The notes under the pieces were generated by a model. The model was not told the origin of the DNA, ran no database searches, and was given only the letters and a program-made list of their open reading frames with translations. DNA of 44,067 bases from a virus (lineage: Duplodnaviria; Heunggongvirae; Uroviricota; Caudoviricetes): positions 1 through 44,067 of IMG/VR virus record IMGVR_UViG_2909303794_000010. The stretch is one strand, 5' to 3'. Positions 26,075-33,159 of this stretch are shown here, in pieces. Both the position numbers and the translations under genes were made by a program. Positions within the stretch are counted from its first letter, which is position 1. Every line of letters starts with the position of its first letter.

Positions 26075-26410
26075 ATGAATAGTTATGAATGGGAATGGCT
26101 TTTAAACAAAGATGACACCCTATGCTTTTTCCCCGTAGGCCATTCTGTAGAAGGTAATTACAAAATTCACTTTGAGTTGAGCGGTAGTTGTAACCTTAGA
26201 GTCTCAGATGCTGAATGGCATGGTAAACCTGTACTGCTGTTCGAATACTTCGATGAAGATGATGACCGCCCTGCAATAATCGAAATATTAGAAACAACCA
26301 CTACAACTGTGGAGGCGATGATCGCACATCTGAATAGTATCGATAGTATTTACCATGAACCGATTTACAAAGCGGTTTACGAGTGGGCCGTAAAGTTTTT
26401 CTATCGATGA
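26075..26410 (+). CDS. hypothetical acidic protein (111 aa)
   Basis: RBS AGGAG 7 nt upstream of the ATG at 26075; acidic stretch EYFDEDDDRPAIIEILE; antisense to the late operon; AT-rich. Confidence 0.5.
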   Translation: MNSYEWEWLLNKDDTLCFFPVGHSVEGNYKIHFELSGSCNLRVSDAEWHGKPVLLFEYFDEDDDRPAIIEILETTTTTVEAMIAHLNSIDSIYHEPIYKAVYEWAVKFFYR

Positions 26411-26453: not shown

Positions 26454-27080
26454 ATGACATGCCAGCACAATACTGTCACTTACAACCGTTCGGATTACCT
26501 AGAGAAAAGTATGATTCAGGATTTACTGATCGAAGCAATTAGTCACGATAGGATGCATAAAAAGTTAAATGAACTGAATTGCTACTTCTACAATCGCAAA
26601 CATGAAACTCAAATACGTGATGAGTTAGTTGTTATTCTCAATCAAATCAGCACACTAACTGCTTTAAGTGAGCATCCAAAACTCGGTATCGGCGCTGTTG
26701 ACATATCACTTTATAACCAGTCGATATTAACGTCTGAACATAATGGCAATGTTGCAACCATCGAGATTAAACACCATTACCCAAAGGATTTACTTTATCG
26801 GCAAGTTCAAGAAGACATCATTTCCGATATTTCAAGAGTAATAGTTTCACCAACTACACACTTTATCCATATAATCCAGCAAAGAACCAAGATTAAAACT
26901 CCTTCTTTTGGTCAAGTGAAATTCCTTGAACGTGATGCAAGTGATATCAGCACTTATGTGCAATGTCTTGAGGAGCTAAGTTCATTTCCCAGTAATTTTC
27001 ATAAAAAAAGTGTATGTATTGAGGTACTTGGTGAAATTATGTCGACATATACCTTTAACGTATATTCATTTGACAACTGA
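26454..27080 (+). CDS. hypothetical protein (208 aa; alternative start 26511)
   Basis: Long ORF co-oriented with the preceding gene; no recognisable motifs. Confidence 0.45.
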   Translation: MTCQHNTVTYNRSDYLEKSMIQDLLIEAISHDRMHKKLNELNCYFYNRKHETQIRDELVVILNQISTLTALSEHPKLGIGAVDISLYNQSILTSEHNGNVATIEIKHHYPKDLLYRQVQEDIISDISRVIVSPTTHFIHIIQQRTKIKTPSFGQVKFLERDASDISTYVQCLEELSSFPSNFHKKSVCIEVLGEIMSTYTFNVYSFDN

Positions 27081-27359: not shown

Positions 27360-27636
27360 CCGCAACAGCCATTTTGATATCTTCCTGGGTTCTCTGTGAC
27401 TCCAGTGCGATCTGCTGTTTTGCATGCTGGTTAGCCTCCAGTACTGTATTGACGATTTGCAGTGATTGCAGGACGTTATTGGTAATGGCAGTTGCCGATT
27501 TGGCATTTTGTACAGCCTCATCAGCACGTTTCTTTTCGTGCTGATATTTGCTGTAGTAGTGATTCGCTGACCAGATGAAAGAGCCAATAACAGTAAAGAA
27601 GAAAGCAGAGATAGTCAGCTTATAACTCAACTTCAT
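27244..27636 (-). CDS. Rz-like inner-membrane spanin
   Basis: N-terminal TM helix then a charged coiled-coil region; immediately downstream of the endolysin. Confidence 0.7.
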   Translation of the reverse strand: MKLSYKLTISAFFFTVIGSFIWSANHYYSKYQHEKKRADEAVQNAKSATAITNNVLQSLQIVNTVLEANQHAKQQIALESQRTQEDIKMAVADDDCASRAVPAAAADRLRKYADSLRERSGGTTATQPDF

Positions 27637-28096
27637 TTACCACCCCACCAGCCTCTTTAAATCGGGCAATCAGGTCACCGATTTTATGTTCATACTGACC
27701 GTAACCTGCACCGGGTAATGAAGCCCATATATTGCTGCAACGGTCGATTGCCTGACGAATATCGCCGCTATCAATCATAGGTAAAGCGCCACGCTCTTTA
27801 ATCTGCTGCAATGCCACTGCGTCCTGGCTTTTGGGGGAGAAGTCTTTCAAACCAAGCTGTTTACGGTAAGCATCCCACCAACGGGAAAGAAGCTGGTAAC
27901 GTCCGGCGGCTGTTGATTTGAGTTTGGAGTTTAGCTTGACAAGTTTGCGAGGGTGATCGGAGTAATCAGTGAACAGTTCGCCACCAACAATAACATCATA
28001 ACCGTGGTTACGTGTCGGTTGTCGCCCGTTATCCGTTCCTTCTGACCATGCCACCATATCAAGGAAAGCTTTACGCTGGGGATTTAGTGCCTGCAT
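27620..28096 (-). CDS. endolysin, lambda R-like lytic transglycosylase
   Basis: NPQRKAFLDMVAWSEGTDNGRQPTRNHGYDVIVGGELFTDYSDHPRKLV... is near-identical to lambda R as I recall it. Confidence 0.9.
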   Translation of the reverse strand: MQALNPQRKAFLDMVAWSEGTDNGRQPTRNHGYDVIVGGELFTDYSDHPRKLVKLNSKLKSTAAGRYQLLSRWWDAYRKQLGLKDFSPKSQDAVALQQIKERGALPMIDSGDIRQAIDRCSNIWASLPGAGYGQYEHKIGDLIARFKEAGGVVNEVEL

Positions 28097-28512: not shown

Positions 28513-29565
28513 TTATTTCCCCACCAGTTCACTTACCTCTTTCACCGTCTGATTAAACCGCTCTGACTCAAGTTCAACACCTAACGCCCGACGTCCCAGC
28601 GCCATTGCTGCTTTTATTGTGGAACCGGATCCCATAAAAAAATCAGCAACCAGATCACCTGGTCGACTACTGGCATTGATTATTTGCCGGAGCATATCCG
28701 CAGGCTTCTCACACGGATGTTTACCCGGGTAGAACTGAACGGGTTTATGCGTCCAGACGTCGGTATAAGGCACGGAAACTGATACGGAGAAATAGCGCCG
28801 GAGAGATTTAAACTCATCCAGCAATTCAGAATATTTGCGATTCAGTGAATCATAAGATGCCACCAGCTGGTGGTGTGGTTGTTCCAGTTGTTGTTCCTGA
28901 AACTTCTCTGCCGCTATACGGGAAAACAGTGCCTGTAACTTCCGATAGTCAGCCTCATTCGGCAACTGCCACTGACTGGCACCAAACCAGTGGGAAACCA
29001 TATTTTTCTTACCTGTGGCTTCGGCAATTTGTTTTGCCGTTATACCCAGTTCGGCACGAGCATCCCTGAAATACGATATCAGCGGTGCCATTATGTGCTG
29101 TTTGAGTTCCCTTTCTTTTGCCGCATAGCCGTCACTTTTGCCGCGATATGGCCCCTGGTAATGTTCAGCAAACAGAACGCGCTCTGTGGCAGGAAAATAT
29201 GCGCGCAGACTTTCTTTATTACACCCATTCCAACGTCCGGACGGCTTCGCCCAGATGATATGGTTAAGCACGTTGAAACGTTCACGCATCATGATCTCAA
29301 TATCAGATGCCAGGCGATGCCCACAGAACAGGTAAAGGCTTCCGGCAGGTTTTAACACCCGCCAGAACTGGGCCAGACAGTGGTCCAGCCACTTAAGGTA
29401 ATCTTCGTCCCCTTTCCACTGATTGTCCCAGCCGTTGGGTTTCACCTTGAAGTAAGGCGGATCGGTAACAATCAGGTCAATGGAATCATCAGGCAGGGAC
29501 TGAATAAAATGCAGGCAATCAGCGTTGATTAAATCAACACTGTTTATTTTTACAGTATTTTTCAT
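28513..29565 (-). CDS. DNA methyltransferase (N6-adenine or N4-cytosine, beta-class)
   Basis: N-terminal DPPY motif (LIVTDPPYFKV); 350 aa; no adjacent restriction endonuclease. Confidence 0.85.
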   Translation of the reverse strand: MKNTVKINSVDLINADCLHFIQSLPDDSIDLIVTDPPYFKVKPNGWDNQWKGDEDYLKWLDHCLAQFWRVLKPAGSLYLFCGHRLASDIEIMMRERFNVLNHIIWAKPSGRWNGCNKESLRAYFPATERVLFAEHYQGPYRGKSDGYAAKERELKQHIMAPLISYFRDARAELGITAKQIAEATGKKNMVSHWFGASQWQLPNEADYRKLQALFSRIAAEKFQEQQLEQPHHQLVASYDSLNRKYSELLDEFKSLRRYFSVSVSVPYTDVWTHKPVQFYPGKHPCEKPADMLRQIINASSRPGDLVADFFMGSGSTIKAAMALGRRALGVELESERFNQTVKEVSELVGK

Positions 29566-29715
29566 GGATCAGTAAGCGTAACTCTGGTAGGCTCACTCTG
29601 CTTTTGCGCTAAAGCAGTGGGCCGTGGTTCGCTTGTGACCAGTAGGCATGAGCGAATGGCTGGCAGGTGCTACCAACACCCACCAGCCGCCCATTTTCAC
29701 AGCAGGAAACCGCCA

Positions 29716-29943
29716 TTACTGGCAGCGTCTGAATTTATTCCCGTACCCGCCGTTATCCTTCGCCAGACCCGCCAGAACTAACTGAGTCAGTATTAACTGG
29801 CACCGGGCTTCGCTTACTCCGGTAGTTCTCGTCATCATGCGTGGCGTTACCCACTTGTCAGCAGGTAAGAAATGAAGGACTGCGGCGGCGGTTTCTGTCA
29901 TATCTTGCTGTTTTAGCATGTCTTTTTCCCTTCTGGTTAACAT
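29716..29943 (-). CDS. hypothetical small protein, possibly DNA-binding
   Basis: 75 aa; first ORF of the late-gene strand after the Q-proximal intergenic region. Confidence 0.35.
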   Translation of the reverse strand: MLTRREKDMLKQQDMTETAAAVLHFLPADKWVTPRMMTRTTGVSEARCQLILTQLVLAGLAKDNGGYGNKFRRCQ

Positions 29944-30041
29944 GACATACCAATAACTCTTGTCTAAAAAGCCAGCAAGATAAAAAGTCAGTATTCACGA
30001 CCACCAGCGTGTTTACTGTACTGCACCAAGTTTACAGGTAC

Positions 30042-30066
30042 AAAAAAACCGCTCAGCGGCGGGTTT
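30042..30066 (-). terminator. candidate short intrinsic terminator (possible tR'-like site of the late promoter region)
   Basis: Short GC hairpin ccgc-NNN-gcgg followed by seven T on the minus strand. Confidence 0.3.
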
Positions 30067-30111
30067 AAGTTGTGTGGCGAAGTAACCACTCTTAACACGA
30101 TACAATAGTTT

Positions 30112-30140
30112 TTGCGTACGCGTTAGTGGTTATGTAAACT
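30112..30140 (+). promoter_or_regulatory. candidate sigma70 promoter for the antisense two-gene unit
   Basis: TTGCGT - 17 nt - TAAACT about 40 nt upstream of the ATG at 30180. Confidence 0.3.
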
Positions 30141-30179
30141 TTCTCCATATAAAAACAGCAAAGAAGCGGATATTTTGAA

Positions 30180-31208
30180 ATGGCTACACTGGACGCATTC
30201 AGTAGAGTAATAACTCATCATACTATTACGATCGATACACAATACCGTACACAGAAAATTGATGATAGCATCAGATCGAACTGTGTTTGCCCGGTACCAA
30301 CAATGCGTGAACTTGCTTCTAAAATAGTACGTTGTAAAGCAATGATGCACAGTTATGAAAAAGGAGACTTAGTTTTAACTTTGCAAGATGTAATCTTCTT
30401 ATCAAACAGAGCCGATAAAAAACCCAGCCATCTTGGTCTTTTAATTAATGCTGTAGATAAAAATGGAAGCACTACTGTGTTAAAAAACATTAATACAGAT
30501 GTTCGTACCGAAATATCACCAAAACATGAGGAAGGTGAAGGTTACGAAGTTTCTTCTCATATGATTATTTCTCTAGACGGAAATATGCGAACCTATGACA
30601 TGAGTTTTATGCCAATACCAGGAGTTTCCACAGCAAAAATAAATGGTTTCCTGAATAAAGTTCTCTTTAACGTAGCCAAAGATAATGAAGATATCTTTTC
30701 ATGTAACACTTTAACAAATGAAGTATCAAGTTTAACAAAGAAAAAAATAAAAGTATTATACAAGCCAGTCTTTGATATATCTGGAAAGTTAGATGAAGAT
30801 TTGTTCAATAAAATAAATAAAGAAGGACTTTCTGATGTCGTTTTGGTAAAGAATGAATACAGAACTATTAATGCGCCAGATGTTAACGCGGCTATTATTC
30901 CTAAAGAAAGTACTTTACGCTTAGTACCAAACCATGGCCCCAACAATGTCCTTGGATGGATAAAATCTGTCTCAAACTTCTTTAAAGAAGATAAAAATGG
31001 AGGTTATGACTTAATAAAAATAAAATTCAAAGAGCCAGAGACAGGATTCACAAGACAAGTTGACCTTCAAACTTCAAATGTAAGGCTCGATGGGCTGGAA
31101 AAAACATTTATCAAAAAGAGTGTAATAAATGGTTTTTCTTCGCGCTTAAAGGATTCTTATGATAGTATTAACATGGAGTTTGTGAATAAGATTATCGAGG
31201 TCATGTGA
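30180..31208 (+). CDS. hypothetical protein (342 aa), no recognisable family
   Basis: Long AT-rich ORF antisense to the flanking phage genes; Lys/Asn-rich; no catalytic motif identified by eye. Confidence 0.55.
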   Translation: MATLDAFSRVITHHTITIDTQYRTQKIDDSIRSNCVCPVPTMRELASKIVRCKAMMHSYEKGDLVLTLQDVIFLSNRADKKPSHLGLLINAVDKNGSTTVLKNINTDVRTEISPKHEEGEGYEVSSHMIISLDGNMRTYDMSFMPIPGVSTAKINGFLNKVLFNVAKDNEDIFSCNTLTNEVSSLTKKKIKVLYKPVFDISGKLDEDLFNKINKEGLSDVVLVKNEYRTINAPDVNAAIIPKESTLRLVPNHGPNNVLGWIKSVSNFFKEDKNGGYDLIKIKFKEPETGFTRQVDLQTSNVRLDGLEKTFIKKSVINGFSSRLKDSYDSINMEFVNKIIEVM

Positions 31209-31215
31209 GGCTAAT

Positions 31216-31791
31216 ATGATTAGTATATTTTCACATTTATTTAGACCGTTTGGTTACCTTTTCATTAAGGGAATTAGTGGTAAGTGCGCATACGATTTTT
31301 ATGCACCTGCCGGGCTTGCTGTGATTTCTTTTTTTTACTTTTATTTATTTAAAATACCCACATCAGACCTACTAAAAGATGGCGGCTTTATTAAGTCTAT
31401 ATCTGGATTTGTATCAAATCTGCCAGGTTTTTATATAGCAGCTCTTGCAGCAATAGCCACTTTCAACAGAGAACAAATTGACTACCCTCTGATAGGAACT
31501 AATGGCACGCCTTTTATTAAAATTACACGAACAAAAGAAAATGGTAGAATTGTTGACACTCAAGAGAAACTTACCAGAAGATTATTTCTGTGCATGTTAT
31601 TTTCATTTTTAACTGCCCTCAGCATATGCATAGTGATTTTCAACGCTTTTATCACACCACTAATAAACATACTGAATAATGATATAGCAAACTGGTGCTA
31701 TATCATTATCTTTTTATTCCTTACATGGCAAATGCTTGTTTCAACATTTTTTGGACTATACTATCTTGGTGATAGGATTCACATTAATTAA
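31216..31791 (+). CDS. integral membrane protein (191 aa, ~4 TM helices)
   Basis: Four hydrophobic stretches (e.g. GLAVISFFYFYLF, LFLCMLFSFLTALSICIVIF, WCYIIIFLFLTWQMLV); starts 7 bp after the upstream gene. Confidence 0.6.
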   Translation: MISIFSHLFRPFGYLFIKGISGKCAYDFYAPAGLAVISFFYFYLFKIPTSDLLKDGGFIKSISGFVSNLPGFYIAALAAIATFNREQIDYPLIGTNGTPFIKITRTKENGRIVDTQEKLTRRLFLCMLFSFLTALSICIVIFNAFITPLINILNNDIANWCYIIIFLFLTWQMLVSTFFGLYYLGDRIHIN

Positions 31792-32146
31792 CTACCATAA
31801 TGGGGTTTATAGTTATTATTACACCGCTGATAAACCCCATGGCAGTCTGCAATTCCTTCCTAATTGTGCCATCTGAACATCTTCTCTTCTTGGCAATAGT
31901 GCGTAATGAGATACCAATAACAAAGTGAGCTATGATCAGCTCATATTCCTCTGGTTTATACTTTCGCAACCGAGCCACACAACCGTCTATCATGATGCCT
32001 TCATCATCATCACACTGGAGACGTGACTTTTTACCGTGTGGTAAAAGTCCCTTGAAACCAGCCGCTATCGGCTGCCAGTCCACACCACTATTTTCTGCTG
32101 CAGCCCATGCTCCCCAGCGGTCCAATACTTCATACATATCACGCAT
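31784..32146 (-). CDS. Q-type late antiterminator (QuuD-like)
   Basis: MRDMYEVLDRWGAWAA...IAAGFKGLL...RCSDGTIRKELQ matches E. coli QuuD as I recall it; start taken at MRDM with GGAGA RBS; the ORF track start at 32161 is probably too long. Confidence 0.8.
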   Translation of the reverse strand: MRDMYEVLDRWGAWAAAENSGVDWQPIAAGFKGLLPHGKKSRLQCDDDEGIMIDGCVARLRKYKPEEYELIIAHFVIGISLRTIAKKRRCSDGTIRKELQTAMGFISGVIITINPIMVVN

Positions 32147-32163
32147 CAACTTTCTCCACAAAA

Positions 32164-33159
32164 TCAGGCCAGCACGCCAATTGCCAGCGCACGATCGATA
32201 AAACGAAATATCAGCTCCAGCTGGGAGCCATACTTCTCTTCAAATGCCACGGTATCCGCATGCAGCTCGTCGTGATGCTTTCTGCACAAAGGCAACACAA
32301 AGAGGTCATGCGCTTTTGTACCCATCCCGCCCTGACCGTGGCCTATCAGGTGGTGGGGATCATCAGCAGGCTTTCCACAACATGCACACGGCTGCGTCTT
32401 AACCCAGCGCGTGTACTTTTCGTTAACCCAGCGGCGACGTTTTGGGCGTAACATAAAAGACTCCGGCGACTCCGGATCCACTTTCAGCGCCAGCACCTTT
32501 TTCGCTTTATCCTGGATGATGCTGGTGGCAGGAACCGAAGGCACAAGGTCACTTTCCCGGGTGACAGACGGCACAACAGGCTTCGGTAATCTCAGTGCCT
32601 TACGGGCTGCACTTTCCGGTAAGGCATCCGCCAGGTCATTACGAATCAGCCACCAGCACAGTTCCGGCATTGTCACAACGTGACTGTCATCAAAACCGAG
32701 ATCCCGACGCACAACAGACAACACCCAGCGGGCACAGTTATCCGTTGCCATTGATTCCAGCCGTTCCGTGAACTGATCGCGCAGCTGGTTATCGCAGTGC
32801 CAGCACAGACGGATTGCGCCCGGCGCGTGTCGCATTGTTGTCATGTTCTCGCTGTGCCAGTCGGAATGAGGCCACTGGCAGCCTTTTTCACGAAGTAACC
32901 AGCTTTCAAGACATTCCACGCCACCAGCACGACGGATCACTGCCTCATTGCGGAACACGGCCCGAACGACAGGATCATCCGCCAGCGGTTGTGATGCCGC
33001 CGGAACGGCACCACTGGCAAAAGATGAATAACGTTCCGGCTCAGGCTCCAGCAGGACACGCCCCTGCATAAACAGGGGCATCAGCTCTGAACCAGGTCTG
33101 AACAATACGATCCCCATACGCGGGGCAATTTCAGGGGTCAGTAGTGCTCTCACAGTCAC
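32164..33159 (-). CDS. zinc-ribbon/HNH-like protein, DUF968-like (YdfU-like)
   Basis: CWHCDN and CACCGKP...HHLIGHG...C motifs; position in the nin-like region upstream of Q. Family name from memory, unverified. Confidence 0.5.
   Translation of the reverse strand: MTVRALLTPEIAPRMGIVLFRPGSELMPLFMQGRVLLEPEPERYSSFASGAVPAASQPLADDPVVRAVFRNEAVIRRAGGVECLESWLLREKGCQWPHSDWHSENMTTMRHAPGAIRLCWHCDNQLRDQFTERLESMATDNCARWVLSVVRRDLGFDDSHVVTMPELCWWLIRNDLADALPESAARKALRLPKPVVPSVTRESDLVPSVPATSIIQDKAKKVLALKVDPESPESFMLRPKRRRWVNEKYTRWVKTQPCACCGKPADDPHHLIGHGQGGMGTKAHDLFVLPLCRKHHDELHADTVAFEEKYGSQLELIFRFIDRALAIGVLA

Follow-up and report, generated by a model that had tools for sequence, protein, structure and literature searches.

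What is encoded by two genes that run against their neighbours between the Q antiterminator and the lysis genes of a lambdoid prophage, and do they form a new system? The question is raised by the IMG/VR virus record IMGVR_UViG_2909303794_000010 (Caudoviricetes), whose 44,067 nucleotides were analysed in full and are referred to as the window. The two genes, designated A and B, probably form a two-component abortive-infection or exclusion module of the RexAB type, belonging to the PDC-M53 family and carried by the lambdoid prophage as lysogen-expressed cargo. This is the best explanation because A and B both match PDC-M53 over their full length, the validated RexABpp pair falls in the same family, and the fold of A, the topology of B, the pairing of the genes and the faster divergence of A all agree with it. 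According to this analysis the cassette is real and probably serves in phage defence, but it is not a new kind of system or immunity; it is a new Escherichia coli member of a known RexAB-type family. The two genes and the Q gene that faces them are:

30180-31208, plus strand: gene A, an open reading frame (ORF) with an ATG start, 342 amino acids (aa); soluble protein of the PDC-M53A / RexApp family with an RdgC/RexA-like fold
31216-31791, plus strand: gene B, an ORF with an ATG start, 191 aa; membrane protein of the PDC-M53B / RexBpp family with four hydrophobic segments
31784-32146 (alternative end 32161), minus strand: Q antiterminator (PF06530, 2.8e-45; RefSeq annotation), convergent with gene B

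The gene pair and the PDC-M53 family

An earlier note, made from the sequence of the window, had described two plus-strand ORFs 7 bp apart between Q and the minus-strand lysis genes. The ORF list of the window and RefSeq agree with this: A and B lie on the same strand with a gap of 7 nt, and in an identical E. coli prophage they are entered as the hypothetical proteins WP_001433853 and WP_000623433. Gene B has a Shine-Dalgarno-like GAGG 5 nt 5' of its ATG. The stops of Q and B overlap by 8 nt on convergent strands, which is the convergent end near the Q stop that had been pointed out. The cassette is also AT-richer than its surroundings, as had been stated, with a G+C content (GC) of 0.335 compared with 0.494 for the whole window, and with values of 0.30-0.36 in 300-nt windows within the cassette compared with 0.48-0.58 in the flanks. 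The gene pair is far beyond chance because it is conserved in hundreds of genomes, and its description as cargo of the lysogen type at a hotspot that lies between Q and the late genes was borne out. The cassette has been acquired horizontally.

Neither Pfam nor NCBIfam assigns a family to A, and PHROGs places both proteins in families of unknown function. The claim that the 342-aa protein belongs to no recognisable family stands in that respect, but not with PADLOC, whose database PADLOC-DB v2 (2023) lists the candidate system PDC-M53. A matches the PDC-M53A model PDLC04696 at 1.3e-31 over residues 8-340 of 342, and three more A models match it too; B matches the PDC-M53B model PDLC04699 at 1.7e-54 over residues 4-190 of 191. 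The adjacency and the order of the two genes are as expected. PDC-M53 is a computational candidate label only, and literature searches for PDC-M53 and for WP_001433853 found no paper.

A characterised member of the family was found in Pseudomonas putida. In prophage P1 of this species, PP_5643 and PP_5644 have been described as a 'RexAB-type' defence (RexApp/RexBpp; Rosendahl et al., Sci Rep 2026, PMC12894663). Neither rexABpp gene can be missed in the defence, which acts on two phage genera, RexApp is a dimer with non-specific DNA binding, and a surplus of RexApp leads to growth arrest and membrane permeabilisation that depend on RexBpp (PMC12894663). A search with the B alignment retrieved, among other loci, L080, which was identified from its gene order and residues as the RexABpp locus of prophage P1. 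Its neighbourhood is the published one: a cI-like repressor and two small genes come before A (330 aa) and B (188 aa), and HicB and HicA come after them. Of the seven RexBpp sites mutated in the paper, six agree in residue (chance about 1e-9) and one is displaced by a single position, and A of this locus with a His6 tag has the published mass of 37.5 kDa. The L080 proteins match PDC-M53A at 8.4e-157 and PDC-M53B at 2.8e-72, so that RexABpp and the window pair are recognised by the same PADLOC models. Both proteins are also homologous directly: B of the window is 38% identical to RexBpp over the full length (E 2e-29), and A is 22% identical to RexApp over residues 81-342 (E 6e-4). RexABpp follows a cI-like repressor, whereas the E. 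coli cassette converges on Q and has another promoter in front of it. The published study makes no mention of PADLOC or PDC-M53 (PMC12894663), and the equation of PDC-M53 with the RexABpp family is therefore a result of the present analysis.

With these matches the suggestion of an undescribed system falls, since PADLOC-DB v2 has listed PDC-M53 from 2023 on and the validation of a homologous pair followed in 2026. The earlier note had named confident homology of the 342-aa protein to a known family as the outcome that would speak against novelty, and this is essentially what the PADLOC run on the proteins and the homology check gave. What the note had seen correctly is the architecture, a soluble sensor with a membrane effector in the style of abortive infection, and a family member in P. 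putida does defend (PMC12894663). The resemblance it overlooked is that to lambda RexA/RexB.

The fold of A resembles RdgC and RexA, with the two domains characteristic of that fold, and its structural relatives include RdgC, CHL4 and IML3, which are published structural relatives of RexA too (PMC11077077). On this basis A is proposed as a DNA-binding sensor that would trigger B. The four hydrophobic helices claimed for the second protein are present in both the hydropathy profile (segments at about 28-48, 64-84, 121-153 and 157-180) and the AlphaFold2 model, whose helices agree with these segments at a predicted local distance difference test score of 87.5. The model has amphipathic N-terminal helices, four long hydrophobic helices and a beta-hairpin within the central loop, which is charged and conserved and spans residues 83-120 (38 aa). 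B is in these respects a RexB-type protein, a downstream-encoded partner with four transmembrane segments and a central loop, and is proposed as the membrane effector. Conserved motifs of B are LPGFYIAALAAIATFNR, LTRR and GLYYLGDRIH. Residue Y183, the equivalent of the RexBpp loss-of-function site Y181, does not vary among the family members (38 of 38). In A, H127 alone is invariant.

A small polytopic membrane protein such as B is also what several superinfection exclusion proteins look like, and it may be asked whether B blocks DNA entry at the membrane, or is a toxin restrained by A in an addiction pair of toxin and regulator, with no abortive sensing at all. Leaky co-expression of rexABpp is toxic in E. 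coli, and the two Rex-like proteins of phage Butters have exchanged roles. In P. putida, however, toxicity depends on B and needs an excess of A, and defence needs both genes. The faster divergence of A fits a sensor in an arms race, and the whole prophage is readily lost, contrary to strong addiction. Exclusion or addiction of this kind is considered improbable.

The close relatives of A are restricted to Enterobacterales. A profile search recovered 308 clusters among 1.84 billion representatives, nearly all of them 310-340 aa long. The B family is broader and better conserved, with 609 matches that include Vibrio, Shewanella, Halomonas and methanotrophs. An A-family ORF lies directly 5' of B on the same strand in 84 of 85 B-bearing loci, mostly viral contigs, and the lone exception is cut by a contig end; the gaps between A and B are mostly 1-15 nt. 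Among species-representative genomes of Gamma-, Beta- and Alphaproteobacteria, A and B are paired in 49 of 55. The six unpaired genome loci comprise two that are cut or fragmentary, one with a fragmented A, one with an IS30 insertion and two with an orphan B. Loci L124, L138 and L120 represent two species genomes with B but no recognisable A and one with an IS30-type transposase at the position of A.

Mean identity is 30.5% for A and 44.8% for B, and B is more conserved than A in 95% of 1,596 pairs. The faster divergence of A fits a variable sensor joined to a conserved effector. The GC of the cassette is lower than that of its flanks in 57 of 57 and in 45 of 45 loci. Vibrio, Salmonella and Nitrosomonas are among the bacteria with family members, and the contexts range from lambdoid prophages to lone chromosomal islands and include a restriction-modification island, a filamentous prophage and a PM2-like element. 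Some members of the Pseudomonas type sit downstream of a cI-like gene. In Vibrio, members were seen on a filamentous (Zot/secretin) prophage and on a PM2-like element (L090:4009-5552; L003:4992-6558).

The cassette is rare in E. coli, with 15 carriers among 5,426 complete genomes, and this rarity could be taken to mean that it is inert or decaying cargo with no present function in this host. The AT-rich DNA is likely to be silenced by H-NS, and some copies have an A truncated to 135 aa. Nevertheless, all 15 carriers have both ORFs intact, with identities of at least 98.9%, and the conserved motifs, gene order and promoter block across the family indicate purifying selection. That the cassette has no function is accordingly thought very improbable. 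In the truncated copies, which are found on E. coli viral contigs (L011:1664-2233 and L022:2966-3535), A is cut to a C-terminal fragment that matches phrog_30139, and B is intact or shortened; these are decaying cassettes.

Relation to lambda Rex, Kiwa and other two-gene systems

The likeness to lambda Rex is one of fold and architecture. The window proteins gave no match to the lambda RexA and RexB models of Pfam or PADLOC at E<1; in the positive control lambda RexA and RexB matched the PADLOC models at 1.3e-108 and 8.6e-61. Among 114 members of the A family none matched Pfam RexA or DUF4747. No link between A and lambda RexA was found with phmmer and hmmsearch on PDB sequences or in cross-searches of hidden Markov models (HMMs). 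The hhalign comparisons of A1 with lambda RexA and of A4 with A3, in several modes, were not significant, with E 0.056 for RexA. For B and RexB, hhalign gave E 0.12 over a 20-residue transmembrane segment only. Membership by sequence in the lambda RexA/RexB families (PF15969/PF15968) was rejected, with no match by model, hhalign or cross-HMM search. Both window proteins are longer than the lambda proteins (PDB 8TWQ), A exceeding RexA by 63 aa and B exceeding RexB by 47 aa. The lambda genes are found in the immunity region with cI, whereas the window cassette is instead convergent with Q.

The earlier note had likened the pair loosely to Kiwa, in which a membrane sensor acts with a DUF4868 DNA-binding effector. 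Only the general pattern is shared, one membrane protein with four segments and one soluble protein. Kiwa has the membrane protein KwaA first and the DUF4868 protein KwaB second, whereas the soluble gene comes first in the window. No match to KwaA, KwaB or DUF4868 was found with Pfam or PADLOC, A has the RdgC/RexA fold, and Kiwa membership was rejected; a Kiwa-like mechanism is scarcely credible.

Two other sets of two-gene systems are among the closest known. Sucellos (SclA/SclB), from cassette 68 of the Vibrio cholerae superintegron, is a validated abortive-infection system of two genes (bioRxiv 10.1101/2024.07.02.601686). It is described as structurally RexAB-like, was missed by Pfam and carries a promoter of its own, and SclB is predicted to form a pore; its homologues are reported as 'often in Salmonella prophages' and in a phage of an ammonia oxidiser (bioRxiv 10.1101/2024.07.02.601686). 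Compared by description only, its occurrence agrees with that of PDC-M53 in Salmonella, Vibrio and, for the ammonia-oxidiser phage, Nitrosomonas. The genome scan gave no PDC-M53 match in the V. cholerae representative genome, and none of the Vibrio B homologues examined is in an integron. It is plausible, from the descriptions, that Sucellos and PDC-M53 could be the same.

The Rex-like pairs of actinophages, Sbash gp30/gp31 and CarolAnn gp44/gp43, also consist of a soluble protein of about 340-370 aa and a protein with four transmembrane segments (PMC6426596). Their central cytoplasmic loop is essential and their defence is abortive infection (PMC6426596). These proteins carry DUF4747, which no member of the A family does. 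A Foldseek search of the B model against viral predicted structures (BFVD) gave no significant match. The best full-length superposition was with a 165-aa protein of mycobacteriophage Sbash (A0A0A7RXT6), which may be gp31, with TM-scores of 0.41/0.45 and a non-significant Foldseek E of 1.3.

The Q junction, the promoter and the cargo slot

The sequences around and within the cassette that bear on its expression are:

29990-30140, no strand: conserved non-coding 'slot' block that precedes antisense cargo, with the cassette promoter and a hairpin terminator inside
30112-30140, plus strand: candidate sigma-70 promoter, -35 TTGCGT at 30112-30117, 17-nt spacer, -10 TAAACT at 30135-30140
30048-30062, minus strand: GC-rich hairpin with a T7 run (terminator scan), intrinsic-terminator-like, candidate tR' of the late operon
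31676-31709, both strands: perfect 14-bp hairpin in gene B, codons about 154-165 (terminator scan)

Conservation of the promoter was assessed across 11 cassettes that encode proteins of only about 45-65% identity. In this set the block at 29990-30140 is far better conserved than the cassette proteins, and with megablast it matches many lambdoid and Stx phages; it probably carries control signals of the late operon. The promoter TTGCGT-N17-TAAACT that had been proposed is present. It agrees with the consensus at only 7 of 12 positions, which is under the threshold of the promoter scan, and it was not listed by the scan. The TTGCGT -35 and TTTGCGTACGC are, however, invariant in the 11 cassettes together with the T, the A and the final T of the -10, at fixed spacing. 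An invariant palindrome, GCGTACGC (30114-30121), overlaps the -35 and the spacer. From the sequence conservation we infer that this promoter drives cassette expression.

The hairpin at 30048-30062 has a sequence annotated 'terminator' in phage Ayreon (H13), and its fold energy alone is unexceptional (z -0.95). Just past it, GTTTAC(N)G(N)TAC occurs twice in the block, at 30011-30021 and 30030-30041, and a protein could bind at these repeats. No convincing minus-strand sigma-70 match that could represent the late promoter PR' was found within the conserved block. Rfam gave nothing significant on 29400-32500, and the block therefore holds no known small RNA.

At the other end of the cassette the link to Q is constant. 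A Q homologue is convergent to B at -7 to +78 nt in every cassette-bearing enterobacterial viral contig, even where the cassette proteins are only about 58-65% identical. The cultured Shigella phage SfII has a diverged PDC-M53 cassette in the slot (SfII_50 and SfII_49), and here only about 285 nt separate the start of gene A from holin S. The similarity of the window Q to the Q genes of other phages starts only at about 31830-31848 (query positions 331-349), from which it follows that the AT-rich segment provides the last 15-20 codons of Q. These C-terminal codons (31784-31848) are non-homologous to other alleles of the same Q family, which places a mosaic junction inside Q, with different cargo bringing a different Q C-terminus.

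The hairpin at 31676-31709 sits where transcription of Q and of the cassette converge. It is terminator-like in both directions, with fold z values of -5.5 and -5.8 against shuffled sequences. Cassettes of 79% identity (L019 and L021) keep it with a compensatory change from T.A to C.G, and three variants (L026, L027 and L037) have another perfect hairpin, of 13 bp, about 64 nt upstream. The hairpin could insulate the converging transcripts of Q and of the cassette from each other in both directions, or it could determine the A:B ratio as an attenuator. That the Q overlap and this hairpin couple cassette expression to the lytic switch is speculative.

The convergent arrangement invites the reading that the cassette serves chiefly the development of the prophage itself, with A biasing the switch between lysogeny and lysis as RexA does, or with antisense transcription into Q damping leaky late genes, and with defence secondary or absent. 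Lambda RexA modulates the bistable switch without need of RexB (PMC11077077). The Q overlap is retained in cassettes diverged to about 58% identity, the hairpin in the convergent zone is conserved, and the shared block also holds the late-operon terminator. The family is nevertheless found in quite different contexts, behind cI, on filamentous and PM2-like prophages and on lone islands, and the linkage to Q is therefore unnecessary for function. The slot moreover hosts unrelated cargo, and the P. putida member defends against heterologous phages. A role chiefly in prophage development is judged unlikely, and the RexAB-type defence module remains the preferred reading.

When the same position was compared across prophages, as the earlier note had proposed, the slot with Q held either PDC-M53 or unrelated cargo. 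The conserved block also precedes unrelated antisense cargo in Escherichia virus mEp460_4F5 and in the Stx2-converting phage Stx2a_1447, and homology to the window stops after the -10, at about 30141. In mEp460_4F5 the cargo is a lone antisense protein of 308 aa (L007:1748-2674; LR595868.1 38147-39073) that belongs to phrog_2802 and has no Pfam or PADLOC match. In Stx2a_1447 it is an antisense pair (L008:1171-2734; AP012536.1 13770-15333) in a slot equivalent to window positions 30141-31840. The first protein of the pair is soluble and 343 aa long (phrog_3482). The second, of 179 aa (phrog_16807), combines four hydrophobic segments with a central loop that is charged, 'SRNEQRRLTRLIKEKSR', a Rex-like architecture. 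The pair is carried by 13-14 of the 5,426 E. coli genomes, O157:H7 included, and matches no Pfam, PDC-M53 or known defence model in Pfam and PADLOC. Judging from its layout, the pair may be another Rex-like defence variant of Stx2a phages. A relationship of either cargo to PDC-M53 was rejected, with no similarity by hhalign or PADLOC.

It can be suggested tentatively that enterobacterial lambdoid phages, among them those of Stx and SfII type, have in the interval from the 3' end of Q to the conserved block a slot dedicated to exchange. One conserved promoter would there serve interchangeable antisense cargo, including at least two unrelated pairs of a soluble protein of about 340 aa with a protein of four hydrophobic segments (PDC-M53, and the 343 + 179 aa pair of Stx2a_1447). 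The Q overlap and the hairpin might keep the module on in the lysogen and let antiterminated early transcription silence it at induction, so that the prophage spares its own lytic growth.

To the left of the cassette, on the minus strand, lie the spanin genes, a GH24 endolysin at 27620-28096 and a holin from 28100. In the window an N6/N4 DNA methyltransferase (28513-29565) and a 75-aa ORF separate the cassette from the holin, whereas in carrier H30 the holin directly adjoins the cassette. The methyltransferase (PF01555, 1.3e-42) and the 75-aa ORF (phrog_331) occupy 28513-29943 on the late strand. They were also found in mEp460_4F5 and Stx2a_1447 and are absent from the cassette carrier NZ_CP035498, and because of this absence they are regarded as a separate optional module. 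The enzyme is probably an orphan methylase. Two further hypothetical genes on the plus strand, at 26075-26410 and 26511-27080 (L001 5076-5411 and 5512-6081), are antisense to their neighbours and placed between the spanin and the HNH/terminase genes. This antisense pair possibly marks a second cargo site in the same prophage.

Proposed mode of action and its meaning

The RexABpp work and the lambda proteins suggest how the cassette might act. A, as a dimeric DNA-binding sensor, would be activated upon infection, and activated A would trigger an oligomeric B in the inner membrane. B would then compromise membrane integrity, leading to a stop of growth and to abortion of the cycle of the infecting phage. 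The cassette may be transcribed in the lysogen from the conserved promoter at 30112-30140. Once the prophage is induced, antiterminated early transcripts would extend through Q and enter the cassette in antisense direction, which could lower its expression.

Several results from P. putida call for caution about the mechanism. A two-hybrid assay showed no interaction between A and B, and RexBpp permeabilises the membrane with no depolarisation detected (PMC12894663). Complementation in trans failed, the process depends sensitively on stoichiometry, and the channel model is still a hypothesis (PMC12894663).

The analysis gives a RexAB-type abortive-infection assignment to two 'hypothetical' genes of E. 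coli, of Shigella (phage SfII) and of other enterobacterial prophages. The Q-proximal slot is a place to seek more defence cargo, such as the uncharacterised pair of the same architecture in Stx2a phages of O157:H7. The computational PDC-M53 is tied to the validated RexABpp and possibly to Sucellos, which would unite three labels in one widespread proteobacterial family.

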